DNA of 64,000 nucleotides from an uncultured Desulfurococcaceae archaeon (GTDB taxonomy: Archaea; Thermoproteota; Thermoprotei_A; Sulfolobales; NBVN01), in NCBI GenBank assembly GCA_964627805.1, contig CAZVLA010000036.1, positions 10,422 through 74,421 on the forward strand. The letters are read 5' to 3'. This document shows, one piece after another, positions 18,671 through 46,513 of the stretch. A program made the translations under genes and the position numbers. Each line of letters opens with the position of its first letter. Position 1 is the stretch's first letter. The notes below the pieces were generated by a model. The model worked only from the letters and a program-made list of their open reading frames with translations. It was not told where the DNA came from and made no database searches.

Positions 18671-19765
18671 TTAAAACCTAGTTACTTGCTCTAACCCATC
18701 CCTACCTAGGATGAAGGTATCCTCAATCTTAACCTGCCCGAGGCCCTCTATGAGTATTGGTGAGTGTATCATAGCTACTGCCATACCCTCCCTTAACTTA
18801 ATGAATCTATGGCTAGGTACTATAGTAGTTATTGGTGGTTCCTCAACCTGAAGACCTACGCTGTGTAGGTAACCAAGTACCCTATTATCTAGGAACCCGT
18901 ACTTACGGTAGACCTTATCGAGCTCCATCATCACCTCAGAAGGCTTAACACCTGGCTTAGTCAGTTCCTTAGCTACTTCGTAGACCTCCTCAGCACACTT
19001 AAGTGCTTTACGACCTAACTCACTACTACCTACTATGAATGTCCTTGAGATGTTAGCGTAGTAGTTTAGGTAGTCAATACCTAAGACAACCGTAACTGCC
19101 GTGCCCTCACGTACCTTAACACTACTTAATGGCTCAGCATGCACCCTAGGGTGGGGTCCCGCATTAACGTGTACCTTAGGCTCCTCAGAACCTAACTTAA
19201 GTGCTTGGTAGTAGGCTTCAGCAGCTACTTCAGTCTCACTAACTCCTGGCTTAATAGTACTAGCTACTACCTCCATGACCTTAGAAGCTAACTCACCAGC
19301 CCTCCTAATAGCACTTAACTCATACTCATCCTTAACCATCCTCAACTCAGTAACTAACCCGGAAATATCAACGACGTCAACACCGGGGTTCAGCCTCTTA
19401 AACATCTCGTAAAACAGTATGTAGGCATCCCTCTCAATACCGTACTCAAGACCAACAACCCTAAAACCACGCCCCCTAACAGTACTTGATACCTTACCCA
19501 TCAACTCACCACCATCCCTAAAAGTAACGACCTCACCAACCCATAGGTACTCACTAAAACCAACCTCCTCACCCTTAGGAACGAAGAATACGGGATCACC
19601 ATCAGCAGGAACCAACATAGCAGGCCTCAACCACTTAAACCCAACTAAGTAAGTGAACGTAGACTTAACACGAACCATAGCAGCATCAACACCCCTAGAC
19701 CTAAGACCCTCCTGAAAAGCCCTCAACCTCCTACGAAGAACCTCAACCGGGAACCTACGAACCAC
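18671..19765 (-). CDS. M24 family Xaa-Pro peptidase
   Basis: 364 aa. Creatinase-like N-domain plus pita-bread C-domain with HSVGLQVEEPP and EDTFIL metal-ligand blocks. Confidence 0.85.
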   Translation of the reverse strand: MVRRFPVEVLRRRLRAFQEGLRSRGVDAAMVRVKSTFTYLVGFKWLRPAMLVPADGDPVFFVPKGEEVGFSEYLWVGEVVTFRDGGELMGKVSSTVRGRGFRVVGLEYGIERDAYILFYEMFKRLNPGVDVVDISGLVTELRMVKDEYELSAIRRAGELASKVMEVVASTIKPGVSETEVAAEAYYQALKLGSEEPKVHVNAGPHPRVHAEPLSSVKVREGTAVTVVLGIDYLNYYANISRTFIVGSSELGRKALKCAEEVYEVAKELTKPGVKPSEVMMELDKVYRKYGFLDNRVLGYLHSVGLQVEEPPITTIVPSHRFIKLREGMAVAMIHSPILIEGLGQVKIEDTFILGRDGLEQVTRF

Positions 19766-19926
19766 ACTACCACCTACACATCAAGAACCAAGCAGGAAGG
19801 AATATATTAGACATTACGTAAGACCACAACACACTTAAACTTAACAACCCAACATATTAACCCACTACGTTAATGAGTTACTCAGTAAGACCTATCACGG
19901 TATAGTACGTAATTAGTACTTGGTGG

Positions 19927-20400
19927 TTGGTATTAGTCGAGACTATTAATTATAGGAAGTTAAGGCTTCACCTAGATGTACTTCATAACATCGTGAAGCA
20001 CAAGTACTTAAGTAGCTCAATGCTTGAAGTAGTACGTTACTGGTATGAATCACGTGGAGATATTGAGGATACTGAAGTCCTAGCATTAGTAGCTGCACTC
20101 TATGATTTCCAGATGAGGGTAGTTACTATTAAGAATAACTTCATGACTATACTGAAGTACTTAGACTCTAAAGGACTTAGGTTCATTGACTTATCTAATG
20201 AGGAGGTGGCTAGGGAGGTATTTAAGTTAGTTAAGGACAGAAGTAAGTTCTTCCACAGATTTGACCCAGTCATGAGAGTACTGCCCATACTCACGAAGTC
20301 AGTAGCTAATGCGGGGCTAAGGGAGGTAGCTAGGAGGTACTCATGGGATATTGAATTGCTTACTAGGAAGCTATTGGAGCGTGTGGGTCTCAGTACTTAA
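19927..20400 (+). CDS. N-terminal part of a DUF2400-type (HhH-GPD-like) protein, split or frameshifted
   Basis: 157-aa ORF ending in frame 1. Carries DTEVLALVAALYDF and FFHRFDP blocks that I recall from the N-half of DUF2400 proteins. The continuation lies in frame +1 (open from 20330). Confidence 0.5.
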   Translation: MVLVETINYRKLRLHLDVLHNIVKHKYLSSSMLEVVRYWYESRGDIEDTEVLALVAALYDFQMRVVTIKNNFMTILKYLDSKGLRFIDLSNEEVAREVFKLVKDRSKFFHRFDPVMRVLPILTKSVANAGLREVARRYSWDIELLTRKLLERVGLST

Positions 20401-21327: not shown

Positions 21328-22713
21328 TTAACTAATTACCTTCACTAACGGTTCTGGTGTTGTGTATGGTCTTATCCTTATGGTGTCTACTACGTATGGG
21401 TACCCACCGAATACGTATACTCTAGTGAATGTTGTGTATGTAGTGTCTACGGTCCTTACCTCAGCTACTTTAGTTCCGTTACTTAGGTAGACCTCAGCTA
21501 TTAGGGTTCCGTTACTTAACCTTATGAATCTGTCGAAGTACCATATACCCTGCCCTAGACCAGGTACTGAGTCTATTGAGGCTATTATGGTTCCGTAGGA
21601 GTTCGTCCTCTTATCTATGAATACGTAGGGACCTACACCACCTAGTGTTGCTGATGGTATTGCGTAGACACCAACACCTATTCCGTAACCATTCATTGAG
21701 TCATCAACAACCCCTACCCTATCCCACCAGCATGGTGTCTTACTTAACCTCATTACCCAAGCCTCTAGAGCGAATGAACCCGTAAGTACCTTACCTAACT
21801 CCCTATAGCCTCCGTTAGGGTCGCAGTACACGTCCTTCTCTAGGCTGTAGGTACCGTCGTGACTTAATGAGTTGATTCTGTAGACGATACCTAATGACCA
21901 ATTAACCCACTCAAACCTACCCTCGAAACTATCGAAGAATATGAATGTCCTGTATGGATTCATGTAGCTACCGTACGGGTTCCTACCTAAGGTTCTTGAG
22001 TACCCGTAGAACATGTATATAGTTACGTTTGAGTTAGCTGGTATGTAGGGGACCTTAACCCATATAGTACCTACTCTAGACCCGTAGTCGAACCTCTCAA
22101 TCCAGAAGTAGAGTGGGTTACCTCTTGAGTCAGCGAAGAATATGTCTGAACCATTAGGTAGTACGTACCCCCACCCACTCCATGAGGGTGTTAAGGTTAC
22201 GTTAACTACGTAATTACGTAGTGACTCACCACTACGTTCAGTAATCACTACCTTAGACCACTTCATAACCATCAATGTAGGTAAGTCAGCTAACCTCAAA
22301 CCAGTAACTACTGAGGACTCAACACCCCTACCACATACCTTAATGGAGAATACCTCATAATCACTTAAGTTAGTAGGTACCGCTATCAAAGCCTCCGAAT
22401 CAGCCCTCACTACGTAAGGACCTATACCCACCTTAACTACTGAACCACCAGTACTAATGAGTGCCTCATCAATAACCGCAGGTACTGAACCTACGTTCCT
22501 AACCCTAAGCACCAGTAACTTAAGTACGGGGTCACCCCTATACACGTCCTCAATAACTACTACGTTCTTAAGTACCGCCTCCTCACCCTTAATAATACCT
22601 GAGTAATTCACCGTAACGACTAGGATAACTAATGAAGTAGCTACCACGACCGCCAGTAAAGTAGCTACTGCTACGTAACTACTCACACCACGCATTACGT
22701 ACTCCCGCATCAC
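21328..22713 (-). CDS. DUF2341 + ConA/LamG-like domain protein with type IV pilin-like (class III) signal peptide
   Basis: N-terminus MRG-VSSYVAVATLLAVVVATSLVILV fits the archaeal prepilin pattern. SDIFFADSRGNPLYFWIERFDYGSRVGTIWVKVPYIPANSNVTIYMFYGY matches the DUF2341 core as I recall it. Confidence 0.75.
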   Translation of the reverse strand: MMREYVMRGVSSYVAVATLLAVVVATSLVILVVTVNYSGIIKGEEAVLKNVVVIEDVYRGDPVLKLLVLRVRNVGSVPAVIDEALISTGGSVVKVGIGPYVVRADSEALIAVPTNLSDYEVFSIKVCGRGVESSVVTGLRLADLPTLMVMKWSKVVITERSGESLRNYVVNVTLTPSWSGWGYVLPNGSDIFFADSRGNPLYFWIERFDYGSRVGTIWVKVPYIPANSNVTIYMFYGYSRTLGRNPYGSYMNPYRTFIFFDSFEGRFEWVNWSLGIVYRINSLSHDGTYSLEKDVYCDPNGGYRELGKVLTGSFALEAWVMRLSKTPCWWDRVGVVDDSMNGYGIGVGVYAIPSATLGGVGPYVFIDKRTNSYGTIIASIDSVPGLGQGIWYFDRFIRLSNGTLIAEVYLSNGTKVAEVRTVDTTYTTFTRVYVFGGYPYVVDTIRIRPYTTPEPLVKVIS

Positions 22714-26350: not shown

Positions 26351-27334
26351 TTGAGGGTAGCTAGGAACGTACTTGAGTTAATAGGTAATACACCCGTAGT
26401 TAAGCTTAGTAAGGTCATACCACCGGACGTTAAGGCTGAGGTGTGGGGTAAGTGCGAGTTCATGAACCCCACGGGTAGTGTTAAGGATAGGATGGCTTAC
26501 TACATGATTAGGGAGGCTGAGAAGGCTGGTAAGCTCAAGCCGGGAATGACCTTAGTAATAGCTACTACGGGTAATACGGGGATATCATTCGCTGCCCTAG
26601 GTTCGTACTTAGGTTATAAGGTAATGATAGTCATTCCTGAGGAGATGAGTGAGGAGAGGTTCCTACTAATGAAGCTATTCGGAGCTGAGATCGTGACAAC
26701 ACCCGGTGGTGAGTCCGATGCTGGTAAGGCTCTCCAGTACTCGTTCGAGTTAGCTAGGAAGGAACCTGATAAGTACTTAGCACTTGATCAGTGGAGTGAT
26801 GAGGCTAATGTTAAGGCTCACTACGAGACCACGGGTAAGGAGATACTCGAGCAGTTAGGTAGGGTTGATGCTTTCGTAGCTCACATAGGTACTGGAGGTA
26901 CCTTAATAGGTGTTGCTAAGCGCCTTAAGGAGGAGAACCCAGACGTACTCGTAGTAGCTGCTGAACCAGCTGAGTGCCCAGTAGCTTACGGGTGGTTTAA
27001 GGAGGGTAAGGAAGGTCCTTGGGGTAGGCACGAAATCGAGGGTGTTGGTGACGGCTTCGTACCCAACATAGTTAGGAGGTATAAGCACTTAATAGATGAC
27101 TTCGTAACCGTATCAAGTGACGAAGCTATTGAGATGGCTAAGAGACTAGCTAGGGAGGAAGCACTAGCTGTAGGCATATCATCAGGAGCTAACGTAGTAG
27201 CAGCTATTAAGGTAGCTAGGAAATACGCGGACAGACTAGGTAAGGGAGCTAAGATCGTAACCATACTACCGGACTACGCAGCAAGGTACTTCAGCACAAG
27301 ACTATTCAGAGAAAAGAGACTCAAAGGAAAATAA
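26351..27334 (+). CDS. PLP-dependent cysteine synthase / cystathionine beta-synthase family
   Basis: PLP-lysine motif NPTGSVKDR, TTGNTG loop, GTGGT phosphate-binding loop; 327 aa. Confidence 0.85.
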   Translation: MRVARNVLELIGNTPVVKLSKVIPPDVKAEVWGKCEFMNPTGSVKDRMAYYMIREAEKAGKLKPGMTLVIATTGNTGISFAALGSYLGYKVMIVIPEEMSEERFLLMKLFGAEIVTTPGGESDAGKALQYSFELARKEPDKYLALDQWSDEANVKAHYETTGKEILEQLGRVDAFVAHIGTGGTLIGVAKRLKEENPDVLVVAAEPAECPVAYGWFKEGKEGPWGRHEIEGVGDGFVPNIVRRYKHLIDDFVTVSSDEAIEMAKRLAREEALAVGISSGANVVAAIKVARKYADRLGKGAKIVTILPDYAARYFSTRLFREKRLKGK

Positions 27335-27812
27335 CGCAAAATAATCTAAAGCAAGGAAAACCAACCCAGGAATCACGTCAATAAACCACTATCCACAACT
27401 TTTTAACACGTATCAATTCAACAGAAAGATCACCTCTTAGGCATAGTGTTAGCTCTAACCTCCCCAATCACGCTTAGACTCTCTCCTTAAGTACTTCCCT
27501 CGTCCTTTCTCTATCTTAGCTTAGAATCTAGAGTAAAACCAGAGGAACCGCTAGGCTCCTACACCTCCCTCTTTCCTCATCTCTAAGTCTAGAATGGGGA
27601 TTGAAGGAAGCTCCGAGTAGTTACATATCTGCTTAAGCATTTAATTTAAGGGTATGGCTTTGACTTGCGGGGGCCTAACCAGTATTTGGGGGTAGTGGGT
27701 CTTTAGGAGCTAGGGTTAGGTAGGGGTGGTTACTTGGGTTTAGGTGCTTCCTCAGTACTTAATTGTTTCTTGAGTTCTCTTACTGGGTTTGACGGGTTGG
27801 GTTAAACTCAGT

Positions 27813-27823
27813 ACATATTTATT
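27813..27823 (+). promoter_or_regulatory. TATA-box-like element upstream of the giant-protein operon
   Basis: CATATTTATTG about 30-40 nt upstream of the TTG/GTG start at 27854/27857. The spacing is compatible with a leaderless or very short-leader crenarchaeal transcript. Confidence 0.35.
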
Positions 27824-27853
27824 GATTACTCCCCTCACTTACGGTAATGGGTA

Positions 27854-30800
27854 TTGGTGGGTAGTGGGTTAGTTAGGTGCTTAACGTTCGTGGTTTCCGT
27901 GTTAGTGATTACTTCATTAGTGGTTCCGGTAGTTCATGTATTGGGTAGTGACTTAAGTAGTGATTACTTGGTGTGGTTCTCTAAGCGTAGCTTAAGTGAC
28001 TACGTACTTATTCAGGCGTTTAGGTTTAGGAGGTGGCCCGATAGGTTAGGGCCTAACCCGTTGGTTGAGAGGTATAGGAATCCGTGGTCTGGGACGTACT
28101 CTGGGTATGAGGGTGTCATTAACTACTTAATATCCCTCTACTACTTCAAGGGTATAGTCCCTAAGTACGAGGTAGTGCCCCCGCTACTTAAGAGGGTTAG
28201 GGAGTTAATGCCTTACTACCCCCTCTACGGGATCTACGAACCGCTTAAGGACGGTGAGGTACTTAGGGATGGTGACGTAATAACCGTGCCTAAGGGTGAG
28301 TCAGTAATCATTGCTTTAGGACCTAAGCTAGTGCTCAATTATGTCAATAAGTTCTTGAGGGGGGCTACCTTTGAGGCTGAAGTAACGCACCCACTAAGTA
28401 ATTACTCACTACTAGGTGAGGTTAGGAAGTACAGCTTAAGCCAGTACGCCGCCTTAGTACCTCTCTACCTAAGTAGTAAGGTGAATTACTACCTATACCT
28501 AACACTACTCAATAGTAACTTCATGAGGGTCCATAAGGAACTACCTAACCTACCGCCATCGCTAAACCCCTTCAGTAGGTCATCATCAATAGTGATCACC
28601 TACGAAATCATAGGTAATGACGGAGCCGCTTGGGTATTCATTGGCGCCCCCAGTAAGTACGTACCGACTAGCTACTTCAGGAGGGCTGAGGAGCTAGCTA
28701 GGAATGAAGTACGTGGGTTGAGACTAGCGAGTACCGTACCTGTAATACAGCCTACGCAGTACTTCATAGCTGGTAATGAGGCACTTAGGGAGGGTAGTAA
28801 GGGTGTCTTAGTAGTTAGGGAGGACGTACTAAGTAGTAACTACTTAATAGTAACTATAAACCCGAGAAAGTACTCAGGTACCTTCAAGATAAGGTTCAAG
28901 GCATACATAGTACCTAGGGGTAGGGAATTCGTAATTAGGGAATTCATTAGGTACGGCTTACGTAAGGATGAGGTAATGAAGTACCCTAAACTAAGGGAAT
29001 TCACACTAACCTTCAAGGTAGGTCCTGAGTACTGGAGGATCCTCGAGGGTAGTAGAGGAGCGAGTATTAGGAGCTCTAAAGCGGATGGGGTAGAGGTGAG
29101 TAACTCCTTAACTAAGGCGGAGATCGTGGGTTACGGTTACTTCGGCGAGGCTATACTGAGGGTTACTGAGTACAGGGACTCGAAGCACTCCTACAGTAGT
29201 CAAGTACTGTATCAGTCAATATTCGGTTCAGGGGTCTACCGTGTGTATAGGTCTAGGGACGTACTCAGGATTAAGTCAGTGGCTTACTTCCCCTTAGGAG
29301 GGGCTACGCCATTACCTAGTGGTGCACCGATAATTATGGAGTCACCTAAGGTTACTAAGTACGTAGCTGTTAAGTCCTTCTACAGCTACTACGACATAAT
29401 ATCGTATAAGTACTCAGTCTTCACGGACCCATGCGGTAATAGTGCTTGGCTCGATAAGTGGATGCACCCCCTATGTAAGTACGCCTACGAGATCATGGGT
29501 GAGACTAACCTATGGCTAACCTACCCCCTATACCAATACAGGTACTACATCGTAGAGCTAACTAGGATGGCTAACGATAACCTAAGGAGCTTCGGTAGTC
29601 ACTGCTTCATTAAGTTCCCATGCCTAATGTACGGTAATTTCATGAGTCTCTTCGATAGGCTCAAGCTAGCCCCAATACCAAGTAGCGTAATAGGTGAGTT
29701 GGATTATAGGGTACCGCCTAGTTGGTGGGGTGTGTTAGGAGTTAATGAAGCTAATGACTTCATATACGACGTAGGCATCGATGCTTACTACTCAGTATAT
29801 GATACCTACTTAAAGGCTAGGATACTCTTCTCCGTACTAGACCTAAGTAGGTTCGGGAAGGTCAGAGTAACTTACTTCGGTAAGTACGATAAGTACGTAG
29901 TGAGTGTGAGGACCTCCCTAGGATTCACTAGGTACGTAAGCCCACCACCCACCTACCTACAAGGAATTAACGAATTAACTTTAGGCGGTATAGTCTCCGG
30001 AACCTTAGCAGGTACGTACTACGTAGCCGGTAAGTTCATTAAGCGCGAGGTCAGGATGGAGGTACCTAACTTCACTATCAAGTCGATGTACATAGTAACT
30101 AATAAGGTGTACTACTCCCTGGGGGATGAGGTCACTGCCTACATACACCTACTTAAGGGTAAGGAACCATTAATGAGTAACTCAATAAGGGTGGTAGTCA
30201 CCCTTAATCATAGGTACTTAAGTAAGCCTAAGGTAATCCTCACTAAGAGATTAAGTACGGACTCATCAGGTACTGCTAAGTTAGTCTTTAAGCTACCTAC
30301 CTACGAGGAATTCTCCAGGGAGTTGAGGGAAGGCGGGAGCAGTAAGTTACCCCCCATCATTAAGTTAGAGATAATCGCCTACGACGACGTTAATAAGCTG
30401 GACTACGTAGCTGAGCGCTGGGTATTGATGGGGGTTGTATTCATCGAGTTAATGGATGTTAAGTCAGTAATATCGCCTAACGTAAACAGTAACTACCCAC
30501 TAATCGAGTTCAGGGATAGGTACTCAGCTAAGTCATTCAGTGACTTACGTAGCCTGTGGTTAATCGACTCAAGAAATAGTAATAAGTTGGTCGTGGAGCT
30601 CAACATCTACGATAGAGTAACTGGTGAGTTGGTTAAGAACCTAAGGCTTAGCAGCCCCTTCGCAGTTATTAAGTTACCTATGGGTGATTACTCGGCCGAG
30701 GTAATCGTCAGGATTAATGACTTAAGCGATGCTTACGTACTTAAGACCCAACTATATAACTTCACGATAGATGAGACCATAACGATGGGTGCGGCACCCG

Positions 30801-33800
30801 TAGTCGAGATTGACGTACCCGTTACGTTGGTAATGAATGCCTTAGAGGTTGAGTCCCAGCTCGAGAAGCTCCAGTACGTCGACGCGACACTACTTAATTC
30901 CGTAATATCCAGCATTAAGAACGTACTAAATAAAGGCGTTAGTAAGTCGGCGGACTTCCTCGATGAGCTAGTAGTCATTAGTAAGGCAGTTAGTAGGGTA
31001 TGTAGTGAGTTAGGTGGTTACGTAGGTAGTAGATGCAGTAAATTAGCTAATTACCTAGTAAGTACCTACTCAGCACCTAGTAACTACTTAAGTAAGTTAA
31101 TCCTAGTTAAGACACCCATTAAGGTCAGATTGATTAGGGAGTACTTAGGGCCTTACATAACGGGTTCTAAGAGGCTACCTAGGTACGGTAGGGACTCCCT
31201 AAGCAACCCGGATAGCTTCTGGTCTAGGCTAGTTAGGGCTACCTTAGTTGAGGCCGTAGTCATTAATAGGTACTACAGGTCAGTGAAGCTTATACACTCG
31301 TCCGTGTACTACGTGAATGACCTCCTATGGGACGTCATTGACGTTACTAAGTTAGGTGAGTTAATATCTGAGATGCGTAGGGCATCCTCCCCGGACGTAA
31401 TCGATGTTAAGGCCCTTGAGGAGGACCTACTTAAGGGCTCAGGCCCCTTCATGAATTACCTTAAGGAGCTTAAGTCATTAGGTGGTTACTCCGTATTTGA
31501 TAAGCTCAATGAGGAGTTAGTTAAGGATGTAGGTGACTTACGTAATGACATCGTTAATGTAGTAGTTAATACGTTCATTAGTCAATCAATTAAGAGCCTC
31601 GTTAGTAACGTAATGATTGGTAAGGTACTGAGTAAGGCCATGAACCTAACATCAAGCGACTTAAGCTACTTAGATACTGAATTAACTAATGAACTCACTA
31701 AACTAGCTACACCACTAACCCACCTAGCATTAAGTAGGGTAGGCGTCACTAAGAAACTACTTGGTTACGACGCGGTACCACCGGATAAGGTATTCAGTAC
31801 TGACTTACGGGGGGCCTTAGGCGCTGTTCTTGATGAGGCTATGAAGTTAGGTACTAAGTTAGTAGCTCATTACGTAGCTGAGGAGTACATAGTTAATGAG
31901 TTAGTACCTAAGCTTAAGGAATTCCTTAAGTACTCAGTAGGTAGCATACTGCATAGGCATAACGCAGGATCTACTCGGGTAATTATTGACTACGTAAGCA
32001 CATTAACGAGCTTCGTAGGTGACGTTGACGGTAGTATGGATGACCTCATGAGTACCTACTCACTAGCTACTAACCCGTTAGGGGCACTTACTAAGCACTT
32101 AAGCTTCATAAGTAGCTACGAGCTTAAGGGGTATAAGGCATTAGAGAGTTCGAGGGCTTTACTGGAGCTAATCGAGGCTAGTAAATCACCTGTGGTATCA
32201 CCCTACAGAGGCACGGAACTCGAGCCACTGATTAGTAAGGTCTACTCTAAAGTGATTGACGGTCTAGGATCGAGGAGCTTCGCATCCAAGAAGCTCTCGT
32301 GGCTGGTTAAGAACCTTAAGGAGGTATTCGGGGAGGCTGGTGAGGGGTTTAGGAGGGCTACCTCACAATTAATGATTATATACCTACTCAAGATAAGTGT
32401 TGAGGGCTTCCTAGCGTACAGTACGTGGACAGCAGGTACCTTAGGTACGGAGTTAGTCCTTAAGTCACTACACTACGAGGTTAAGGGGGTACCCGTAGTT
32501 AGGGCTGATGAGGTCGCTCAAGCATACGCGGGTATCTTCAAGTACTTCCTAAACATAGCTCCGGGGTGGACACTCTCGATTCAATCACAGATCAGTATGT
32601 CGGGTAGTAAGTACTCAGTAAGTGACTTAAGTACGTCATACGTAGTCAGTAACTCACCAAGGATTAAGGACCTAAGCACCCTCGTGAGTAGCGTAGGCGT
32701 TAACTCATTCAGTACTAGATTCGCTAGGCTTAAGGAATTAATCAGTAAGTTAGTATCCAGTAACTACTTAATGGGTAGGGACTTAATCGAGGCCTTAAAC
32801 CTCACTGACTCAACCTACCATGACTTAGGGATAGTGATTAAGGCGTTAGGTAGTGGCTTAATCAGTAGGGAAGGGGTAGGTATTAATGAATTAGTGAACC
32901 TACTAAGTACTTACTACGTACTGAGGCTAGTTAGGGACTCCATCCTCCAGCTATACGCGTCACCCATAATCACCCTCAACCGCTCCGAACTAACTATACT
33001 AATGAATGCCTTAATGAGGTCCTCAAACACCCTTGACGACCTAATGAGCAGGTTAGTTAGTGGGTTAGGTAGTGATGAGGCGGTGGTATTCGTTGATGCC
33101 TACGTAAGTAAGGCAGGTATCCACGGACTGAACAGTACGTTAAGGTTACTAGTAACTACGTACTCAGGAGGTACTCACGAGTTAGTGATTAGGTTCAGAC
33201 CCTTAAGGAACGTAGTTAGGTTAGGTAGGGACGAGGTTAGGCTTAAGCTAGGTAATGGATTAAGGAGGTACGGCGTAACCAATTACGTAATCATGAAGAA
33301 CCCCGTAAGGTACGGCTTAGTCGAGGTTAAGGCATTCCTTGACGGTAGGTTAGTGAGTTACTCAGTAGTTAGGACTGAAGCTATTAGTGACTTCAAGAAG
33401 TTAGTCGTTGGTAACTTAATCATTAATTACTTAGTAAGCATGCCTAAGGTAGTTATTAAGGACGGGGCTATTAGGTTAAGTAACTTAACCAGTAAGGACT
33501 ACGTAGTTATCTACTTACCTAAGGTAGGTAGCGGTGCTAAGCCTGAGTTAGTATGTAGCGGTAACTACACGTCCGTAATCATTGACTTAGGTAGGTACTA
33601 CGTAATTAAGGTTACTTATGACTCAGTAGGTAGTTTAGTGATTAAGTACTCACTGAAGCACGAATCCTACATAGCTAACCTCGGGGAGGGTAAGGTTATT
33701 TACGAAGGAAGCGGTGAGGTACTACAGCACTCTAAGGTATTGAGTAGGGAGGTGGTTAGTAAGTCAGTAGGAACTACTACCGGGACCTACGGAACCCCAT

Positions 33801-33982
33801 TAAGCAGTAGTAGGGGTGAGGGATTAGCGAGTGGTGAGGTACTGAGTACCTCCTCAGTAGCCAAGGCTAAGGCAGGGGCTAGTCCTCTCGGCTACGTAGT
33901 TGTGACTTACGTACTAGTAACTACCCTAGTAGCTGCTTTCGTAACTTACCTAATCATTAGGAGGAGGGGAGGAGGTGGTTGA
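27854..33982 (+). CDS. Giant (2042 aa) exported protein with C-terminal membrane anchor; function unknown, candidate envelope stalk/anchor
   Basis: Uninterrupted 6.1-kb ORF. N-terminal hydrophobic segment LTFVVSVLVITSLVVPVV. Ser/Thr/Gly-rich tract (GTTTGTYGTPLSSSRGEG...STSSVAKAKAG), then TM YVVVTYVLVTTLVAAFVTYLII and RRRGGGG at the C-terminus. No catalytic motif recognised. Confidence 0.7.
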   Translation: MVGSGLVRCLTFVVSVLVITSLVVPVVHVLGSDLSSDYLVWFSKRSLSDYVLIQAFRFRRWPDRLGPNPLVERYRNPWSGTYSGYEGVINYLISLYYFKGIVPKYEVVPPLLKRVRELMPYYPLYGIYEPLKDGEVLRDGDVITVPKGESVIIALGPKLVLNYVNKFLRGATFEAEVTHPLSNYSLLGEVRKYSLSQYAALVPLYLSSKVNYYLYLTLLNSNFMRVHKELPNLPPSLNPFSRSSSIVITYEIIGNDGAAWVFIGAPSKYVPTSYFRRAEELARNEVRGLRLASTVPVIQPTQYFIAGNEALREGSKGVLVVREDVLSSNYLIVTINPRKYSGTFKIRFKAYIVPRGREFVIREFIRYGLRKDEVMKYPKLREFTLTFKVGPEYWRILEGSRGASIRSSKADGVEVSNSLTKAEIVGYGYFGEAILRVTEYRDSKHSYSSQVLYQSIFGSGVYRVYRSRDVLRIKSVAYFPLGGATPLPSGAPIIMESPKVTKYVAVKSFYSYYDIISYKYSVFTDPCGNSAWLDKWMHPLCKYAYEIMGETNLWLTYPLYQYRYYIVELTRMANDNLRSFGSHCFIKFPCLMYGNFMSLFDRLKLAPIPSSVIGELDYRVPPSWWGVLGVNEANDFIYDVGIDAYYSVYDTYLKARILFSVLDLSRFGKVRVTYFGKYDKYVVSVRTSLGFTRYVSPPPTYLQGINELTLGGIVSGTLAGTYYVAGKFIKREVRMEVPNFTIKSMYIVTNKVYYSLGDEVTAYIHLLKGKEPLMSNSIRVVVTLNHRYLSKPKVILTKRLSTDSSGTAKLVFKLPTYEEFSRELREGGSSKLPPIIKLEIIAYDDVNKLDYVAERWVLMGVVFIELMDVKSVISPNVNSNYPLIEFRDRYSAKSFSDLRSLWLIDSRNSNKLVVELNIYDRVTGELVKNLRLSSPFAVIKLPMGDYSAEVIVRINDLSDAYVLKTQLYNFTIDETITMGAAPVVEIDVPVTLVMNALEVESQLEKLQYVDATLLNSVISSIKNVLNKGVSKSADFLDELVVISKAVSRVCSELGGYVGSRCSKLANYLVSTYSAPSNYLSKLILVKTPIKVRLIREYLGPYITGSKRLPRYGRDSLSNPDSFWSRLVRATLVEAVVINRYYRSVKLIHSSVYYVNDLLWDVIDVTKLGELISEMRRASSPDVIDVKALEEDLLKGSGPFMNYLKELKSLGGYSVFDKLNEELVKDVGDLRNDIVNVVVNTFISQSIKSLVSNVMIGKVLSKAMNLTSSDLSYLDTELTNELTKLATPLTHLALSRVGVTKKLLGYDAVPPDKVFSTDLRGALGAVLDEAMKLGTKLVAHYVAEEYIVNELVPKLKEFLKYSVGSILHRHNAGSTRVIIDYVSTLTSFVGDVDGSMDDLMSTYSLATNPLGALTKHLSFISSYELKGYKALESSRALLELIEASKSPVVSPYRGTELEPLISKVYSKVIDGLGSRSFASKKLSWLVKNLKEVFGEAGEGFRRATSQLMIIYLLKISVEGFLAYSTWTAGTLGTELVLKSLHYEVKGVPVVRADEVAQAYAGIFKYFLNIAPGWTLSIQSQISMSGSKYSVSDLSTSYVVSNSPRIKDLSTLVSSVGVNSFSTRFARLKELISKLVSSNYLMGRDLIEALNLTDSTYHDLGIVIKALGSGLISREGVGINELVNLLSTYYVLRLVRDSILQLYASPIITLNRSELTILMNALMRSSNTLDDLMSRLVSGLGSDEAVVFVDAYVSKAGIHGLNSTLRLLVTTYSGGTHELVIRFRPLRNVVRLGRDEVRLKLGNGLRRYGVTNYVIMKNPVRYGLVEVKAFLDGRLVSYSVVRTEAISDFKKLVVGNLIINYLVSMPKVVIKDGAIRLSNLTSKDYVVIYLPKVGSGAKPELVCSGNYTSVIIDLGRYYVIKVTYDSVGSLVIKYSLKHESYIANLGEGKVIYEGSGEVLQHSKVLSREVVSKSVGTTTGTYGTPLSSSRGEGLASGEVLSTSSVAKAKAGASPLGYVVVTYVLVTTLVAAFVTYLIIRRRGGGG

Positions 33983-36900
33983 TGTGGGTTTGTTAGGTAG
34001 GTCTAAACCCTTAGTAGCTACATTAATCGTAGTAGCTGCAATCCTAGCGACTACCCCCTACGTAACTCAAGTAAGTGCTGATTACTACACACTTAAGGTA
34101 GTCACTAACAAACCATTATTCGCTGTATTCATTAACGGTACGTTCAAGGGGCTCTACGACACGGAAGCTCTACTGAGGTTAAGGAGGGGTACTTACGAAG
34201 TATCGTTAATTAGCGTAGGTACTGATTGGGTTAACCGCACGGTAGTACTCAACAGTAATAAGGTAGTTAAGGTGGGGTTAGGGATTGGTGGGTACGTAAG
34301 TATTAAGGCGTTGATTAAGGGACCGACTAACTACGGAGGGACAGTCAAGGCATGCATATTTAAGAACGGGCGCTTAAGCAGTACTACATTCATAAGTAAT
34401 AACTCCGTACTTGAGATGGTCCCTAAGTTACGTAGTACGTTGCTGGGACTGGGTATTGAGGGTGGCGAGTTAGTTAATTACGTAGTAGGTCCTAAAGAGG
34501 CTAGGGAAGGTAGGTTAATTATAAAGTATAAGGACTTAGGGTTAGGTCTGCTGAAGGTAGTACCAGTAACTAGTAATGTGGAGGACCTCCGTGGAGGAGT
34601 GAAGGCATTAGTGGTTAACGGTAAGTACGTAGTAGTTCTTAAGGAGTACGGAGGTAATTACGTAGTAGCCCTACGTAAGGGTAGGTACAGGGTTAAGTTA
34701 GTAGTGACTCCTTACTGCTCAGACATGAGTAACTGCCCTCAAGGAATTACCTACATGTCCGACGAGACTACAGTAAACGTCGCTCCCGGGGAGTTGAGGG
34801 AGGTAGTGCTTAAGGTCAGACCAACCTACGCGCGCTCCATGAGGTTCGTCATCCATGCTAAGTACTTAGGGAGGAGGTACTTAACGTACAGTAACGTATT
34901 CGGGCTACCTACGTGGGCTCCGGGGTCGACGTACTTACTAGATAATAAGTTAGTACTGATTAATGGTGAGGAATTAGCACTACTCACTAGAAGTAGTGAC
35001 TACGCACTCCTAAGGATGGACCTAAGTAACTTAAGTAGGTTCAACATCACGTTACTCTCACCAACCTACGGGGTGAAGTCAGTCCGTACCGACGTCTCCC
35101 CCAAGTCACTGCAGGTGAGGTCTGAGGTGGTATTGAGTGTTAAGTTAGGTAGGGTCGTGTTTAGGGGTTTGAGGGGTTACTTAGGACCTAGTACGTACGT
35201 ATTAATTAATGGTGAGTTAGTTAATACGGTACCTACTTCATACTTAGAGAGTCAAGGGATGTACCTACCACGGGGTAGGTGGTGCATTAAGTTACTGAGT
35301 ATGAACTGGCGTACGTACACTATGTACGAGGTTAGTAAGTGCTTGAGTATTAGGGGTTACGACTACTTAGTCATCGATAGTGGTAACTACACCTTAAGGA
35401 AGTACCCGTACTTAAGTACGTCAGTAACCAATAGTAAGTTCAAGTACGTAAGCATTAACTTAGTCGGTATTAACTACAGATCGACCTACGACTTAAGGGC
35501 CTTAGTACTAATTAATGGTGAGCCAGTAGCTTATAAGTACTTAAGAGGGAGTAAGGGTGTTCTATCGCTAGTTAATGCCTTCATACCAGCTAACGTAAGT
35601 AACTCCTCCGTAATCAAGATTAAGGCTTTAGTAAGGGACGTAAGGACGGGTGCGCTGTACGTTGGTGAGTCCGAAGTAACTGCCTCCGGCGCGTTACTTG
35701 TTAACGTACGTATGAGGAGGGTTAATGGCGACTTAATCATCGACTTAAGGAGCGGTGGTAGGGATTACAGGATATACGCAGTAGGTAATTGGGTTGACGG
35801 TCACTTCGTAGGTGCTGTTAGTGGGGGTTACGGAAGCTCCACTAAGTACGTACTTAGGGGGTTGAGCTTAGGTAGGCATAGTGTTAAGTTACTGGTTAAG
35901 GTATGCCGTAGGTACGTATGCTCCCTAATCAGTAGGGAGTACTTAGTGAGTGTCGGTTCTGGGGATAACTCATTAAGTGTGTTAGTCAGTAGTAAGGACT
36001 TCAACGAAGCGTTAGGTAGGGCTAAGTTAGTGATTAAGGGTAAGTTAGGTTCCCGGAACCTACTAATGATTAGTAAGTCCGGTGAGGCTAGGTTATGCTC
36101 TACCTACTTAGCTAGGGAGGACATCACTATCGACGGTCTTAAGCTAGGTGATGAGGTTAAGATAGTGAGTAGTAACGACACCGTAGTGTTCAAGGAAATC
36201 AACGGCGACGTAGTAGCTCTAGGACCTACTAACTACTACACTAACTGGGTTAGGTTGAGTGACTTAGTTAATGAAGTTAATTTAAGGAGTGACTACGCTT
36301 ACCTACTAGTGAATTTAGGTAGGAGGGTTAAGGGTGAGGCAGTAGCTATTGATTCCGAAGGTACCGTACGTTCAGTAAGTAGTAAGTCATACAAGGCGTT
36401 TGGGGAGTACAGTAACTACCTAGTAATACCCGTTAGTGCAGGCTACTTCAGACTACTTAAGCTCTACATCACGGTATCTAGCCACGTACTTACCCCCGGA
36501 GGGGGTAGGGAGTACTACCTAGTCCTTAGTAATAAGTTACTCGATCCTGGTAAGTACTACGTAATACCCCGTACCTCCTTAAGACCCGCTACGGCCACCT
36601 TAGTAGTTAAGCCAGTAAGTAGCGTTACTGGGGAGCCCGTATACCTTGAGTTAATGGCTCTATTCATTAACGGGACCTTCGTAAAGGCAGTTACCCTAGT
36701 CCCTAACTCCATCAACTACGTACTCCTTAACCTACCCATAAACCTCACCTACAGAATATCGATTTACTCAAGGAACTACGAACTACGTAACTACGTAGTT
36801 AAGTTAGTTAGGGATTACCAGGTAGTTGAGTTACCGATGAGGTTGAGGAGCGGTGAGGTACCTACTTACGTGTACTTAAGTGAGGTAGTTATTGATGGTA

Positions 36901-37694
36901 GTAAGTACTTAGAGGTCGTTATGAGTATTGAGGACTCATCACCCCTCAAGAACGTACTTCCCGAGAATGTAGACTTAGTAATTAATGGTGAGGCCTACGT
37001 AATGAGTAAGTACTCAGGGGGTTCGTGGGTAGCACTAATACCTACTAAGCTCCTACGTAAGGGCATTAACCACTTAGTAATAACTGCCGGTGATGTTAAG
37101 CTCCATGAACGTACATTCACCTTAAGCAGTACCGAGGTAGTTACTGAGTTCAGTAGGTACTTGGTTAGGGTTGGTGAGGGGGTTAAGGTTAGGGTTAAGG
37201 TATTTAATGCCTCAGAACCCCTCAGTAGGTACTCATTAGTTATTACCTACGTAAGTACATCAAGCAACGTAAGTAATTACCTAGCGTACGTCACGGAGTT
37301 GAGCAGTAGTGAATTACTCATTAATTGGGTACCTAAGGAGGCAGGGATCTACGTAGTAACTACTAAGCTCCTTAAGGACGGTGAGTTAATTAGTAAGTAC
37401 GTTAGTAGGGAATTAATCGTCGTACCTAAGGATGAGACGACACTACTTAAGTTCATACCTGAGGTAGCGGGTAATGCGTTAGTTATTGATGGTTTAGCGT
37501 ACGTACCTTGGGGTAATGAAGTACGGGTTAAGGTATTCATCAATAACTCACTAGTCCATGAGGGTGTGGTTAAGGGTTACGTATTCAAGTATTCAGTAAG
37601 GGTAGGTAGGGGTAGTACATACGTAGTTAGGGTTGAGTACGTAGTCGATGGTGAATCAGTAGCAACTGAAGAAGCTATCGTTAGGGTTAAGTGA
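33975..37694 (+). CDS. Large (1239 aa) secreted multi-repeat beta-rich protein (PEGA-like modules); function unknown, candidate envelope lattice protein
   Basis: Overlaps the upstream stop by 8 nt (GTG 33975). An alternative GTG at 33984 is preceded by SD-like GGAGGTG (33971-33977). Signal-like LVATLIVVAAILATT ... QVSA/DY. Recurrent [LFV][IV]NG[ET] motif; many N-x-S/T sequons. Confidence 0.7.
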   Translation: MVDVGLLGRSKPLVATLIVVAAILATTPYVTQVSADYYTLKVVTNKPLFAVFINGTFKGLYDTEALLRLRRGTYEVSLISVGTDWVNRTVVLNSNKVVKVGLGIGGYVSIKALIKGPTNYGGTVKACIFKNGRLSSTTFISNNSVLEMVPKLRSTLLGLGIEGGELVNYVVGPKEAREGRLIIKYKDLGLGLLKVVPVTSNVEDLRGGVKALVVNGKYVVVLKEYGGNYVVALRKGRYRVKLVVTPYCSDMSNCPQGITYMSDETTVNVAPGELREVVLKVRPTYARSMRFVIHAKYLGRRYLTYSNVFGLPTWAPGSTYLLDNKLVLINGEELALLTRSSDYALLRMDLSNLSRFNITLLSPTYGVKSVRTDVSPKSLQVRSEVVLSVKLGRVVFRGLRGYLGPSTYVLINGELVNTVPTSYLESQGMYLPRGRWCIKLLSMNWRTYTMYEVSKCLSIRGYDYLVIDSGNYTLRKYPYLSTSVTNSKFKYVSINLVGINYRSTYDLRALVLINGEPVAYKYLRGSKGVLSLVNAFIPANVSNSSVIKIKALVRDVRTGALYVGESEVTASGALLVNVRMRRVNGDLIIDLRSGGRDYRIYAVGNWVDGHFVGAVSGGYGSSTKYVLRGLSLGRHSVKLLVKVCRRYVCSLISREYLVSVGSGDNSLSVLVSSKDFNEALGRAKLVIKGKLGSRNLLMISKSGEARLCSTYLAREDITIDGLKLGDEVKIVSSNDTVVFKEINGDVVALGPTNYYTNWVRLSDLVNEVNLRSDYAYLLVNLGRRVKGEAVAIDSEGTVRSVSSKSYKAFGEYSNYLVIPVSAGYFRLLKLYITVSSHVLTPGGGREYYLVLSNKLLDPGKYYVIPRTSLRPATATLVVKPVSSVTGEPVYLELMALFINGTFVKAVTLVPNSINYVLLNLPINLTYRISIYSRNYELRNYVVKLVRDYQVVELPMRLRSGEVPTYVYLSEVVIDGSKYLEVVMSIEDSSPLKNVLPENVDLVINGEAYVMSKYSGGSWVALIPTKLLRKGINHLVITAGDVKLHERTFTLSSTEVVTEFSRYLVRVGEGVKVRVKVFNASEPLSRYSLVITYVSTSSNVSNYLAYVTELSSSELLINWVPKEAGIYVVTTKLLKDGELISKYVSRELIVVPKDETTLLKFIPEVAGNALVIDGLAYVPWGNEVRVKVFINNSLVHEGVVKGYVFKYSVRVGRGSTYVVRVEYVVDGESVATEEAIVRVK

Positions 37695-39601: not shown

Positions 39602-40093
39602 ATGAGGTCGTACGTCTTTAGGAGGTTCATGATACCTACTACGTACTTAGTAATAGGTACCACATCACTAGCTTACGGAGGTACCTTAGTACTTAATTAC
39701 TTAGCTGAGCTAGTGATTAGGTTAGTGTCTTCAGTAGTCTTCATACTAACAATCATAGCTATGGTTAAGGTACACTCAATGTACCCTAAGAAGCATGACC
39801 TACCGTCAGACTTCCCTAAGCTACTTAGGGAGGGTCCGTACGCAGTAGTTAGGCACCCACTATACGCACTAGTAATTACTAATCAATTAAGCATACCTGC
39901 ATTCATGCTTAGTCTATGGGGGCTAATTACCTTCCTAGCATGCCTACCCCTATGGTACGTACTGATTAGGCTTGAGGAGAGGGAACTCATTGATTACTGG
40001 GGTGAGGAGTACTTAAGGTACATGAGGGAGGTCCCATCAATCATACCCATACCTAGGAGGTTTAGGAGGGGTGGTTCCGGAGGTAATTCTTAA
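39602..40093 (+). CDS. Isoprenylcysteine carboxyl methyltransferase (ICMT) / phospholipid methyltransferase family membrane protein
   Basis: 163 aa, multi-TM. LREGPYAVVRHPLYAL and EERELIDYWGEEY match the ICMT/PEMT C-terminal cofactor-binding region. Confidence 0.7.
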   Translation: MRSYVFRRFMIPTTYLVIGTTSLAYGGTLVLNYLAELVIRLVSSVVFILTIIAMVKVHSMYPKKHDLPSDFPKLLREGPYAVVRHPLYALVITNQLSIPAFMLSLWGLITFLACLPLWYVLIRLEERELIDYWGEEYLRYMREVPSIIPIPRRFRRGGSGGNS

Positions 40094-40129
40094 ATACCTC
40101 GCACCCCGAGGTATTTCTTAGGTGCTGGA

Positions 40130-41014
40130 ATGAGTACTTACGAACTACCCCTACGTAAGGTATTGATTACCTACGTACTAACCTCCTTCAGTATTGCTTA
40201 CCTACTAGACACACCCCTAATAACTGGTTATTTACCACGTACGTACTTCCCCCTAATAGCTACGGTACGTATGTGGGCACCATTCACAGCAGTAATTACC
40301 TCACTCTGGGTCTGTGGCGTACCTATTAGGGGTGGTCTTAAGTACGTTGGTGTTAGGTTAGGTAGGCTTAAGTACGTACCCCTAGCCCTCTCAATACCCT
40401 ACGTAATATACTTACTAGGTGCTAGTATCTGCTACTTAGGGGGTCTAGAACCCACTAACCCACTACTAGCTATTACTAAGGAGTTAGGTAAGTCAGCAGT
40501 GATTGCGTCAGCACTCATTAAGGCTAACCCACTAGGTTTCCTAGCCCTCCAACTAGTGATGTCGGGGGTTGCTGGAGTAACGATTAATGCTGTAGTAGCT
40601 CTTGGTGAGGAGGTTGGTTGGAGGGGCTTAATGTACTCAGTACTAAGGCCTAAGTACGGGTTAGTACCCTCAGCACTAGTGACTGGTGTTGCTTGGGGTT
40701 TATGGCACGCACCACTAATAATATTCCTTAAGTACGGACTACCACACCACCCAGACGCCTTAGGCGTAGCTATGTACACGGCAGTAGTGAGTGTTTGGTC
40801 GTTAATTATGTACGTACTTAGGGAGGCTTCAGGATCCGTAGTACCTCCAGCCGTAATGCACGGTACCTTAAACGCCTTAGGTAATTTAATGCTATTCACC
40901 TACCCAGGTATTGATGAGGTATACACCATACCCTTAGGGCTAGCTTCCTTAGTAGCTTCAGTTTTAGTAGCTACTGCATTACTCATTATAAGGTCCGCCT
41001 TAATGAGTAGGTAA
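40130..41014 (+). CDS. CPBP family intramembrane glutamic endopeptidase (CAAX protease / Abi family)
   Basis: 294 aa, polytopic. Motif 1 EEVGWRGLMY (EExxxR), motif 2 WGLWHAP, motif 3 HGTLN. Confidence 0.8.
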   Translation: MSTYELPLRKVLITYVLTSFSIAYLLDTPLITGYLPRTYFPLIATVRMWAPFTAVITSLWVCGVPIRGGLKYVGVRLGRLKYVPLALSIPYVIYLLGASICYLGGLEPTNPLLAITKELGKSAVIASALIKANPLGFLALQLVMSGVAGVTINAVVALGEEVGWRGLMYSVLRPKYGLVPSALVTGVAWGLWHAPLIIFLKYGLPHHPDALGVAMYTAVVSVWSLIMYVLREASGSVVPPAVMHGTLNALGNLMLFTYPGIDEVYTIPLGLASLVASVLVATALLIIRSALMSR

Positions 41015-45193: not shown

Positions 45194-46513
45194 GTGATTA
45201 GGGACTACACACTACTAACTGCCTCAGTAATTGCTGCGTTAGTCGTACTTACTTCATTAGTTCCTCAAGTAGTTACTAGTGGTGCTGGGGTTGAGGGGGT
45301 ACCTTACTACCCAATGCACTCAGCTATATGCGCTATTAAGTCACTACAGATGGTCCTATCCTACTACGGGTACAACTACAGTGAGTCCCTACTACTCCAG
45401 TTAAGTGGTTGGGACTACGGCGCCTTCTACCTACCTAATCAGCACGTAGGTTTCGGTATAGGTCTATACCCAGTAACCGCTATGTTCAGAGCTAGTAACT
45501 TACTGGGGTTTGACATGAGTTACTTAAGTAAGAGTGACTTTAACGACGCACTAAACTACGTAATTAACGCCTTAAGGAACTCAACACCCGTGATTATTCA
45601 GTTAAGGGAGCATACCGTAGTTGCTGCTGGCTACACTAAGGACTCACTAATAATTAATGACCCAAGCGGTGGCCCCTACTCATGGAGTAGCTTAGAGGAT
45701 TTTGAGGTACTTAACATTAGTAAGCACTTAAGTAGGGACTTCATTAAGTACTACAAACTAATAAGTAGTAGGGTAGGGTTCGGTGGTTACGTCAGGATTA
45801 ATTACGGGGTACTTAGGGAGTTATGGAGGTCTTGGTGGGGTACTTACCAGTTAATAATTATTAAGCCTAGGAAGCCTAGGGAATTCATTAACTTGAGCCT
45901 ATGGGCTGAAGTACTTAGGTATGATGGTGAGTTAGAACTAGGTATTACTGGTGGGGGTGGTGGGGGTACTTACTTAAGTGGTGTTAGGGCTTGGAGGGCA
46001 TTAGCTGAGGACCTAGCACTGTACTTCCCAAGCGTAGTTAGGGAGTACCCAGCTAATCTATACTGGATTAAGTCCTGCATGCTAGACATAGCTACTGCGA
46101 GGAGGTTAGACGCCTCATCATTCCTAAGTAGCTTAGCTAACACCATTAAGTCAAGGAACTTAAGCCTAGCTTCCTGGTACTTAGAGAGGGCCTCCGACGA
46201 ATTCAGCTACGCATCAGTCCTCGTAGCTCAAGCAATTAAGTACAGAAGCAACTCCTCACTAGTTAAGGAATTACTCACTAGAGCATCAAAACACGTACTT
46301 AAGGCAGCTAAGTACGAAGAACTAGCTGGTAAGTACTTAATAATGGCGTCTAAAGAAATCAGTAAGTACCCCCTAAGGAAGGAAGTAATTAACGCAGTAA
46401 GTAAGGAGGGATTAACTGAGGAAGTAACGTACGCACTAATAACAGCAGTAATAGCTGCTGCGGCGGCCTCAGTAGTAGCTGTATTAATTAAGGGTAGGAC
46501 TAAGGAACGCTAG
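45194..46513 (+). CDS. Exported C39-like (papain-fold) cysteine peptidase domain protein with C-terminal TM anchor
   Basis: N-terminal signal-like LLTASVIAALVVLTSLV. HSAICAIKSLQMVLSYYG (Cys block) and EHTVVAAGYTKDSLIINDPSGG (His block) as in Peptidase_C39_2. GGGGGG linker, helical region, then C-terminal TM ALITAVIAAAAASVVAVLI. Confidence 0.6.
   Translation: MIRDYTLLTASVIAALVVLTSLVPQVVTSGAGVEGVPYYPMHSAICAIKSLQMVLSYYGYNYSESLLLQLSGWDYGAFYLPNQHVGFGIGLYPVTAMFRASNLLGFDMSYLSKSDFNDALNYVINALRNSTPVIIQLREHTVVAAGYTKDSLIINDPSGGPYSWSSLEDFEVLNISKHLSRDFIKYYKLISSRVGFGGYVRINYGVLRELWRSWWGTYQLIIIKPRKPREFINLSLWAEVLRYDGELELGITGGGGGGTYLSGVRAWRALAEDLALYFPSVVREYPANLYWIKSCMLDIATARRLDASSFLSSLANTIKSRNLSLASWYLERASDEFSYASVLVAQAIKYRSNSSLVKELLTRASKHVLKAAKYEELAGKYLIMASKEISKYPLRKEVINAVSKEGLTEEVTYALITAVIAAAAASVVAVLIKGRTKER

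Follow-up and report, generated by a model that had tools for sequence, protein, structure and literature searches.

Molecular knowledge of Desulfurococcales S-layer proteins is limited to a handful of organisms (tetrabrachion, Aeropyrum), and the crenarchaeal orders examined to date all differ from one another in S-layer architecture. Tetrabrachion of Staphylothermus marinus is a giant exported protein, in which beta-rich arms and a 70-nm coiled-coil stalk are parts of one gene product; it ends in a C-terminal membrane anchor, and the large protein associated with it is the STABLE protease (PMC5744192). The SlaA/SlaB system of the Sulfolobales is a two-gene operon, in which an anchor with a C-terminal transmembrane helix behind a helical region is combined with an anchorless immunoglobulin (Ig)-rich protein, and the lattice is held off the membrane. 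S-layers of the Thermoproteales have been attributed to one colossal Ig-rich protein and not to a pair, and PySLP, a single protein, is nearly all Ig-like, its stalk included, with a tail that ends in Lys (bioRxiv 10.64898/2026.08.21.746120). Here, we analysed a 64-kb stretch of DNA from an uncultured archaeon (contig CAZVLA010000036.1, assembly GCA_964627805.1; hereafter the window) and focused on two adjacent giant open reading frames (ORFs), ORF1 and ORF2. We conclude with high confidence that the pair forms an operon whose products are two exported envelope proteins: ORF1, a giant with type-I anchoring, and ORF2, an anchorless beta-array. We tentatively place first the reading that they constitute the S-layer-type envelope module of their lineage, under either division of labour between the two proteins, although from their sequences we would not give it an even chance.

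Architecture and conservation of the gene pair

The original prediction, made from the letters of the window, named two uninterrupted ORFs of 2042 and 1239 aa, and both are present on the plus strand at 27854-33982 and 33975-37694. ORF1 is identical to the database protein P0001, while the database protein for ORF2, P0003, has 1236 aa and begins at GTG 33984. The genes and the signals around their starts are as follows.

27854..33982, plus strand: ORF1, 2042 aa from a TTG start; ectodomain of ~221 kDa with an isoelectric point (pI) of 9.3; putative membrane-anchored giant envelope protein
33984..37694, plus strand: ORF2, 1236 aa from GTG 33984 (1239 aa if from GTG 33975); mature protein of ~133 kDa, pI 9.6
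27813..27824, plus strand: TATA-like element CATATTTATTGA, ~30-40 nt 5' of the ORF1 start
33971..33977, plus strand: Shine-Dalgarno (SD)-like GGAGGTG within the final ORF1 codons, 6 nt before GTG 33984
33984..34079, plus strand: ORF2 signal peptide with a basic n-region, a hydrophobic core and predicted cleavage at ...TQVSA/DY

Both homologues were found adjacent and in unchanged order in a second genome, on an NCBI contig of a metagenome-assembled genome (MAG; GCA_054043105.1, locus L001). ORF1 is 45% identical over its full length to the 2041-aa protein P0002, and ORF2 is 39% identical over its full length to the 1246-aa protein P0004. Since both are conserved at full length and adjacent in the second genome, ORF1 and ORF2 are, as judged from these alignments, genuine genes. 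The flanking proteins are 60-98% identical between the window and L001, so that the pair diverges much more rapidly than the genes around it, as would be expected of proteins exposed at the cell surface. A common origin of ORF1 and ORF2 as paralogues was ruled out (hhalign probability <3%).

The two genes were predicted to be translationally coupled, with the ORF1 stop overlapping the ORF2 start by 8 nt. Both genomes show the tight juxtaposition with an SD sequence, but the overlap is absent from L001 and probably unused in the window: GGAGGTG lies 6 nt before GTG 33984, P0003 starts there, and ORF2 of L001 starts with an ATG 6 nt past the ORF1 stop, preceded by AGGAGGTGA, the equivalent of GGAGGTG. 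The codons of the ORF1 tail (RRRGGGG at 33959-33982 of the window, RRRLRR at 13075-13101 of L001) double as the SD sequence of ORF2 in both genomes, which places the tail under two constraints at once. Upstream of ORF1, L001 has a sequence similar to the TATA-like element, TTATTTACT, at an equal distance from the start of the ORF1 homologue, and both loci share ACGGTAATG followed by 4 nt and the start codon. This arrangement suggests a promoter whose transcript would have a very short leader or none. Leaderless translation of ORF1 and SD-led translation of ORF2 would agree with what is generally known of crenarchaeal operons. Scans for sigma-70 promoters and intrinsic terminators were uninformative, as their models do not apply to archaea. 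The non-coding spacer between ORF1 and the PALP gene directly 5' of it is 520 bp long (27335-27853), as against 99 bp in the homologous locus. On the plus strand, the 3' half of the 520-bp spacer is rich in G, and neither an ORF of at least 30 aa nor an Rfam match was found in the spacer, which could be a remnant or an extended regulatory region.

ORF1 was divided into the following regions. The class assignments from its helical part onwards draw on an AlphaFold2 (AF2) model of aa 960-2042, which was built from a 2-sequence alignment, has a mean predicted local distance difference test (pLDDT) score of 31.5 and was used for secondary-structure class only.

27854..27949, plus strand: aa 1-32, N-terminal hydrophobic segment (aa ~9-30) with conserved Pro25; candidate signal peptide or signal anchor
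27959..30808, plus strand: aa 36-985, distal ectodomain, probably beta-rich; conserved Cys pair C527/C541
30821..33073, plus strand: aa ~990-1740, predicted to be alpha-helical, several helices being 50-64 residues long; Cys pair C1050/C1061; candidate spacer/stalk
33176..33703, plus strand: aa ~1775-1950, predicted membrane-proximal beta domain (AF2 secondary structure and composition)
33731..33892, plus strand: aa 1960-2013, Ser/Thr/Gly-rich linker, predicted disordered; S+T+G content of 47% (52% in the homologue)
33893..33979, plus strand: aa 2014-2035, transmembrane helix, with the predicted cytoplasmic tail RRRGGGG

The termini of ORF1 are as originally described, with a hydrophobic N-terminal segment (Kyte-Doolittle maximum of 2.64 within aa 1-35), a Ser/Thr/Gly tract, one C-terminal transmembrane helix and the RRRGGGG tail. 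The homologue is laid out alike at its N-terminus (MFRGKLLKLL...ISEA/SSS) and ends in RRRLRR, the RRR being invariant. The deduced topology of signal or anchor, huge ectodomain, Ser/Thr linker, transmembrane helix and basic tail is typical of archaeal envelope proteins. The best conserved stretch in the identity profile is aa 100-400, with 60-74% identity to the homologue, and the composition of aa 36-985 as a whole matches that of beta regions, so that this head is probably beta-rich. In the low-confidence model, the helices of aa ~990-1740 are broken up by Pro/Gly-containing interruptions; the periodicity spectrum of the region showed helical hydrophobic periodicity with no dominant 3.5 or 3.67 period. 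No significant Foldseek match was obtained with the model of the C-terminal half.

ORF2 likewise has the features first ascribed to it, a signal-like segment up to QVSA/DY and no further hydrophobic segment, and the N-terminus of its homologue is similar in layout (...YVVGA/TSGNY). Both proteins are very probably exported, as had been proposed. An AF2 model of ORF2 aa 40-1239 (2-sequence alignment, mean pLDDT of 38.8, again used for secondary-structure class only) was all-beta throughout at low confidence. Its Foldseek matches were solely strings of Ig, FnIII, MG or Big domains, among them cytokine receptors, titin-family and complement proteins, the Haloferax S-layer protein 7ptp, the SiiE adhesin and phage fibre proteins; the TM-scores were ~0.1, and the matches therefore show no more than a tandem beta-sandwich array. 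The motif ΦΦ[VILF][NDK][GN], which was defined post hoc after inspecting ORF2, occurs 14 times in ORF2 versus 1.8 +/- 1.3 times in shuffled sequences and 12 times in the homologue, and it is not enriched in ORF1. The PEGA family (PF08308) matched ORF2 module 1 (aa 38-101) below threshold, with 15.2-15.5 bits (E = 0.016-0.021) against a Pfam gathering cut-off of 20.8 bits, and it matched only 1 of the 16 extracted ORF2 modules, the other 15 giving no Pfam match. Internal repeats were only weakly detectable at the protein level, and no meaningful tandem repeats were found in the pair at the DNA level (Tandem Repeats Finder). Taken together, these results and the models indicate that ORF2 is probably an anchorless array of ~10 diverged PEGA/Ig-like beta modules.

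Every Cys common to the two homologues lies in a closely spaced pair or cluster, in ORF1 as in ORF2, where the pairs C437/C456 and C644/C649 and a cluster of C248 with C254/C255 are conserved. This pairing suggests disulfide-stabilised extracellular domains. The supposed richness of both proteins in N-x-S/T sequons did not survive a comparison with shuffled sequences. ORF1 has 9 sequons (0.44 per 100 aa) versus 11.9 +/- 3.1 in shuffles, and its homologue is depleted as well (6 versus 15.4 +/- 3.6). For ORF2, 14 sequons (1.13 per 100 aa) were counted versus 9.3 +/- 2.8 in shuffles (P ~0.07), and for its homologue 14 versus 9.9 (P ~0.07-0.1 for both ORF2 proteins).

We then turned to the distribution of the pair. 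Word-indexed searches of 5.8 billion proteins returned, for each of ORF1 and ORF2, itself and one homologue. When the profile of the ORF1 C-terminal half was used, such a search returned nothing, itself included, indicating that the candidate list saturates for queries of this kind. When a profile of the ORF1 head was run exhaustively with HMMER against 1.84 billion representatives, only the two known proteins and P0005 were found. P0005 is the 150-aa product of an 853-bp contig from a third strain (L083; ENA ERZ27248007, k141_61133). The first part of this contig is ORF1-like (70% identical to P0002 aa 36-209 by blastx) and the second part is ORF2-like (58% identical to P0004 aa 848-938), so that it represents either a misassembly (chimera) or a variant of the operon with a large in-frame deletion. 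No relative of ORF1 was found in genome contigs of species representatives, none of ORF1 or ORF2 in metagenome contigs and none of ORF2 in viral contigs. Pfam, NCBIfam and PADLOC contained no match to the full-length proteins, and the only PHROGs match of the pair was one of ORF2 at noise level (E = 0.35). Pfam searches of 20 overlapping sub-segments yielded the sub-threshold PEGA match and noise, and single-sequence and profile searches of PDB chain sequences yielded noise only. Homology to a characterised non-envelope family, which would have spoken against the original proposal, was thus not found in Pfam, NCBIfam, PHROGs, PADLOC or PDB. The proposal that neither protein carries a recognisable enzymatic motif also holds, as Pfam and NCBIfam revealed no catalytic or nucleotide-binding domain. 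Overall, by these searches the pair appears to be a lineage-restricted orphan found in three strains of one lineage. Because of its rate of divergence, sequence searches could miss homologues in the closest relatives that have been sampled.

The original prediction had placed the pair in a Thermoproteales context, and this framing is wrong: the best matches of the PALP protein, at 81% identity, are in Desulfurococcales MAGs, followed by Thermogladius and Staphylothermus at 70-72%, and the organism is therefore a Desulfurococcales archaeon. No species-representative genome contains a PALP protein closer than 81%; given this and the lack of an ORF1 relative among the species representatives, the lineage is essentially unsampled.

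Reading of the pair as an envelope module

In the arrangement that we favour, the two genes form one operon for a two-protein extracellular envelope assembly, most likely the S-layer-type wall of the lineage. After export, ORF1 would remain anchored in the membrane through its C-terminal helix, and its RRR tail would lie on the cytoplasmic side. The flexible Ser/Thr linker and the small beta domain would lie at the membrane, the ~750-residue long-helix region would act as a spacer or stalk, and the conserved head of ~950 residues would be displayed distally. ORF2 would be translated off the shared mRNA via the internal ribosome-binding site and secreted; having no anchor of its own, it would stay on the cell by binding ORF1, as a canopy, sheath or lattice partner. 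The interaction between ORF1 and ORF2, the formation of a lattice, the identity of the lattice former and a high abundance of the proteins are points that we infer. By analogy with tetrabrachion, ORF1 could itself be the lattice former, with ORF2 as an accessory, because ORF1 is best conserved in its distal head of ~950 aa.

In the way it appears to be anchored, ORF1 parallels tetrabrachion, SlaB and PySLP (PMC5744192; bioRxiv 10.64898/2026.08.21.746120), and an S-layer is the sole wall in almost all Desulfurococcales (PMC5744192). We ranked an S-layer-type module first because of this resemblance to known anchors and because the S-layer is usually the only wall in the order. The absence of near-identical tandem repeats, which sets the pair apart from repetitive adhesins, the absence of enzymatic, viral or defence domains and the native codon usage were counted in its favour as well. 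Tetrabrachion, which is not known outside its genus, also illustrates that an S-layer protein in the Desulfurococcales can be confined to its own organism.

Several observations weigh against an S-layer-type module, and some of them would suit a different surface complex better. The pair could also be a giant adhesin, a fibre or a matrix-binding assembly, sparse and without a lattice, which would project through or beyond a conventional S-layer encoded elsewhere and mediate cell-cell, cell-mineral/sulfur or host-symbiont attachment; we regard this as a doubtful but serious contender. Only 64 kb of the genome are visible, and another locus could encode the S-layer, for example as a tetrabrachion homologue. 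The distribution of the pair is very narrow, which would fit an adhesin. Among 80 related PALP loci, no giant ORF follows the PALP gene, and tblastn found no relative of ORF1 or ORF2 there. Their absence beside PALP in relatives, together with the toxin-antitoxin insertions 3' of the pair in L001, points to a variable region, again as might be expected of an adhesin. Sequons are not enriched in the pair and are depleted in ORF1. In this low density the pair departs from the known S-layer proteins of crenarchaea, of which those characterised carry heavy N-glycosylation. Both mature proteins are also strongly basic (pI 9.3-9.7), whereas S-layer proteins are mostly acidic; such a charge would help the pair to bind anionic surfaces. 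The AF2 models have low confidence (pLDDT of 38.8 and 31.5), so that the domain folds and any coiled coil are only predicted, and PDB searches revealed no similarity to SlaA, SlaB or the tetrabrachion stalk fragment. The S-layer reading itself is a prediction from sequence.

The Foldseek matches of ORF2 to SiiE and to phage Big/FN3 fibre proteins are consistent with an adhesin too. However, the hallmarks of repetitive adhesins of the SiiE/Bap/RTX type are lacking, since neither the near-identical tandem repeats typical of giant adhesins nor a Pfam adhesin, lectin, RTX, cohesin/dockerin or other binding domain was found. Moreover, the C-terminal transmembrane helix with Ser/Thr linker and basic tail is the classical archaeal S-layer anchor, and 10 kb would be much to spend on it in a probably small genome (the related Thermogladius has a chromosome of 1.33 Mb). 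If the pair were nevertheless of the adhesin type, it would be among the largest investments in such a genome and might mediate attachment in vent sediments.

Should the S-layer-type module be real, this orphan pair, with a helical spacer in one protein and PEGA/Ig-like modules in the other, would represent a further, independent design for keeping a canopy at a distance from the membrane at high temperature. It would also show how quickly S-layer proteins diverge (39-45% identity versus 60-98% in the neighbours), and such fast divergence would cause S-layer genes to be missed by homology in MAGs. The operon is a concrete target for metaproteomics or heterologous expression.

Genomic neighbourhood

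The genes 5' of the pair are syntenic in the window and in L001: a DUF2341 protein, a helix-turn-helix (HTH) protein, a 227-aa protein, an ABC ATPase, an ABC-2 permease and PALP. The DUF2341-domain protein (460 aa, 21328-22713, minus strand) stays syntenic with the pair in both genomes. PALP (26351-27334, corresponding to 5888-6871 of L001) is 98.5% identical between the two loci, while the other shared neighbours are 60-86% identical; this suggests unusually strong constraint or a recent gene exchange. The genes for SIR2, a rubrerythrin-like protein and DUF2871 on the 3' side are common to both loci but rearranged, and in L001 HEPN/nucleotidyltransferase and PIN/MazE toxin-antitoxin pairs lie between ORF2 and SIR2 (17774-20242). 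Given these insertions, the region 3' of the operon is a variable hotspot.

A diverged counterpart of the pair beside PALP in relatives was ruled out by tblastn and by the lack of giant ORFs at the 80 loci, where the one large neighbour, a 1216-aa protein in Zestosphaera, proved to be reverse gyrase.

The patchy distribution, with the pair missing at the PALP position in related genomes, and the toxin-antitoxin genes 3' in L001 might also be expected of cargo of a mobile element or virus, or of a secreted toxin/effector pair. We consider this very improbable, since neither protein matched a viral, defence or toxin family, no relative of ORF2 was found in viral contigs, the GC content and codon usage of the pair are native, no integrase or tRNA gene lies near the pair, and the 5' synteny is stable in both genomes. 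Neither GC content nor codon usage gave a signal of horizontal transfer.

Elsewhere in the window, an ICMT/PEMT-like methyltransferase (163 aa) is encoded directly 5' of an Rce1-like CAAX/CPBP protease (294 aa) at 39602-41014 on the plus strand, a pairing that recalls eukaryotic CAAX-processing enzymes but is here archaeal. A protein of 439 aa with a C39-like peptidase domain is encoded at 45194-46513 (plus strand). A candidate anti-virus defence cluster lies at 3028-5569 (plus strand). Its first gene encodes an AbiLi-like protein, an ABC ATPase of the OLD/Gabija type with a full-length match to PADLOC AbiLi (E = 8e-28), and is followed by a PDC-M38B-like gene (4162-4839) and a PDC-S10-like gene (4898-5569). 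The 64-kb window contains no tRNA and no Rfam match.

Comparison with described envelope systems

Tetrabrachion belongs to the same taxonomic order as the pair, the Desulfurococcales, and ORF1 resembles it in plan, with beta structure distally, a long stretch of alpha-helix, an anchor at the C-terminus and a second large protein alongside. ORF1 alone might be the whole S-layer protein, in the manner of tetrabrachion, and ORF2 an accessory to it; this reading overlaps with the S-layer-type module but reverses the anchor and canopy roles first proposed, and ORF2 would then be positionally analogous to the STABLE protease but non-catalytic. The order of head, helical region and anchor mirrors tetrabrachion (PMC5744192), the head of ~950 aa is the best conserved part of ORF1, ORF2 diverges faster (39% versus 45% identity), and Staphylothermus is among the close PALP relatives. 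Nevertheless, we consider this unlikely. Sequence and profile searches of PDB chains with ORF1 (E <= 10) returned no tetrabrachion chain, and tetrabrachion is presumably present in PDB only as a short stalk fragment. Unlike the single coiled coil of ~70 nm in tetrabrachion, a tetrameric hendecad/heptad structure of ~500 residues, the ORF1 helices are predicted not to exceed 64 residues and to be interrupted by Pro/Gly-containing breaks, according to a low-confidence AF2 model (pLDDT of 31.5), and no strong long-range heptad or hendecad signal was detected. ORF1 further differs by an extra beta domain between helices and membrane, which PMC5744192 does not mention for tetrabrachion, and by being ~500 aa longer. 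ORF2 is not a subtilisin, unlike the STABLE partner, and has no protease motif in Pfam.

The pair would share with SlaA/SlaB the two-gene plan of an anchor with a helical region, here a predicted one, and an anchorless, probably beta-rich partner. The differences foreseen in the original prediction were borne out: the anchor gene comes first in both genomes, whereas slaA precedes slaB, and the anchor is ~4 times the size of SlaB. ORF1 may have a layout of the SlaB type (N-terminal beta domains, a C-terminal coiled coil and a transmembrane helix), as transmembrane, helical and beta regions are predicted in it, the helical and beta regions at low model confidence and with the extra beta domain between the helices and the transmembrane helix; unlike SlaB, ORF1 carries a head of 950 aa. 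Phmmer and profile searches of all PDB chains, in which we take solved SlaA/SlaB entries to be included, gave no SlaA or SlaB match at E <= 1-10, and Pfam and NCBIfam were empty. SlaA/SlaB also belongs to another order, the Sulfolobales.

PySLP is of the same size class as ORF1 (>2000 aa) and likewise has a signal, a huge ectodomain, a C-terminal transmembrane helix, a basic tail and conserved Cys pairs, and some of its regions diverge faster than others, as in ORF1. Proteins like PySLP occur in the Thermoproteales and in other Thermoproteota, and their architecture includes a beta-hairpin next to the membrane. By architecture, ORF1 is set apart from this single, almost entirely Ig-like protein, since it has a helical region of ~750 aa, a C-terminus of G or R and a second protein at its side.

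The haloarchaeal S-layer protein csg is built of tandem Ig-like domains, as ORF2 appears to be (Foldseek match 7ptp), and, like ORF1, has a Ser/Thr-rich linker just outside its C-terminal membrane anchor. Unlike csg, neither ORF1 nor ORF2 has a recognised PGF-CTERM-type sorting signal (NCBIfam was empty); both are basic, whereas csg is very acidic and comes from a different phylum. The high sequon density of archaeal S-layer glycoproteins was not observed in the pair. PEGA (PF08308) is a beta-sandwich module of S-layer-like proteins; ORF2 module 1 spans positions 2-64 of its 71-position model, and a PEGA-like pattern, 'I-N-G ... G-x-Y-x-V', recurs ~10 times along ORF2.

In its most specific form, the proposal is that the pair is the S-layer of an unsampled Desulfurococcales genus and a fourth Thermoproteota architecture beside SlaA/SlaB, tetrabrachion and PySLP, in which a 221-kDa anchored subunit with a ~750-residue helix spacer and a 950-residue head is joined by a co-translated 133-kDa protein of ~10 PEGA-like modules, both of them basic and poorly N-glycosylated; with all these particulars we hold it to be somewhat unlikely. 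As far as the searches can tell, the pair is a member of none of the systems compared, namely SlaA/SlaB, tetrabrachion (judged against the stalk fragment only), PySLP (by architecture), PEGA (by threshold) and the repetitive adhesins. By analogy of layout, it may nonetheless work like the known crenarchaeal stalked envelopes.

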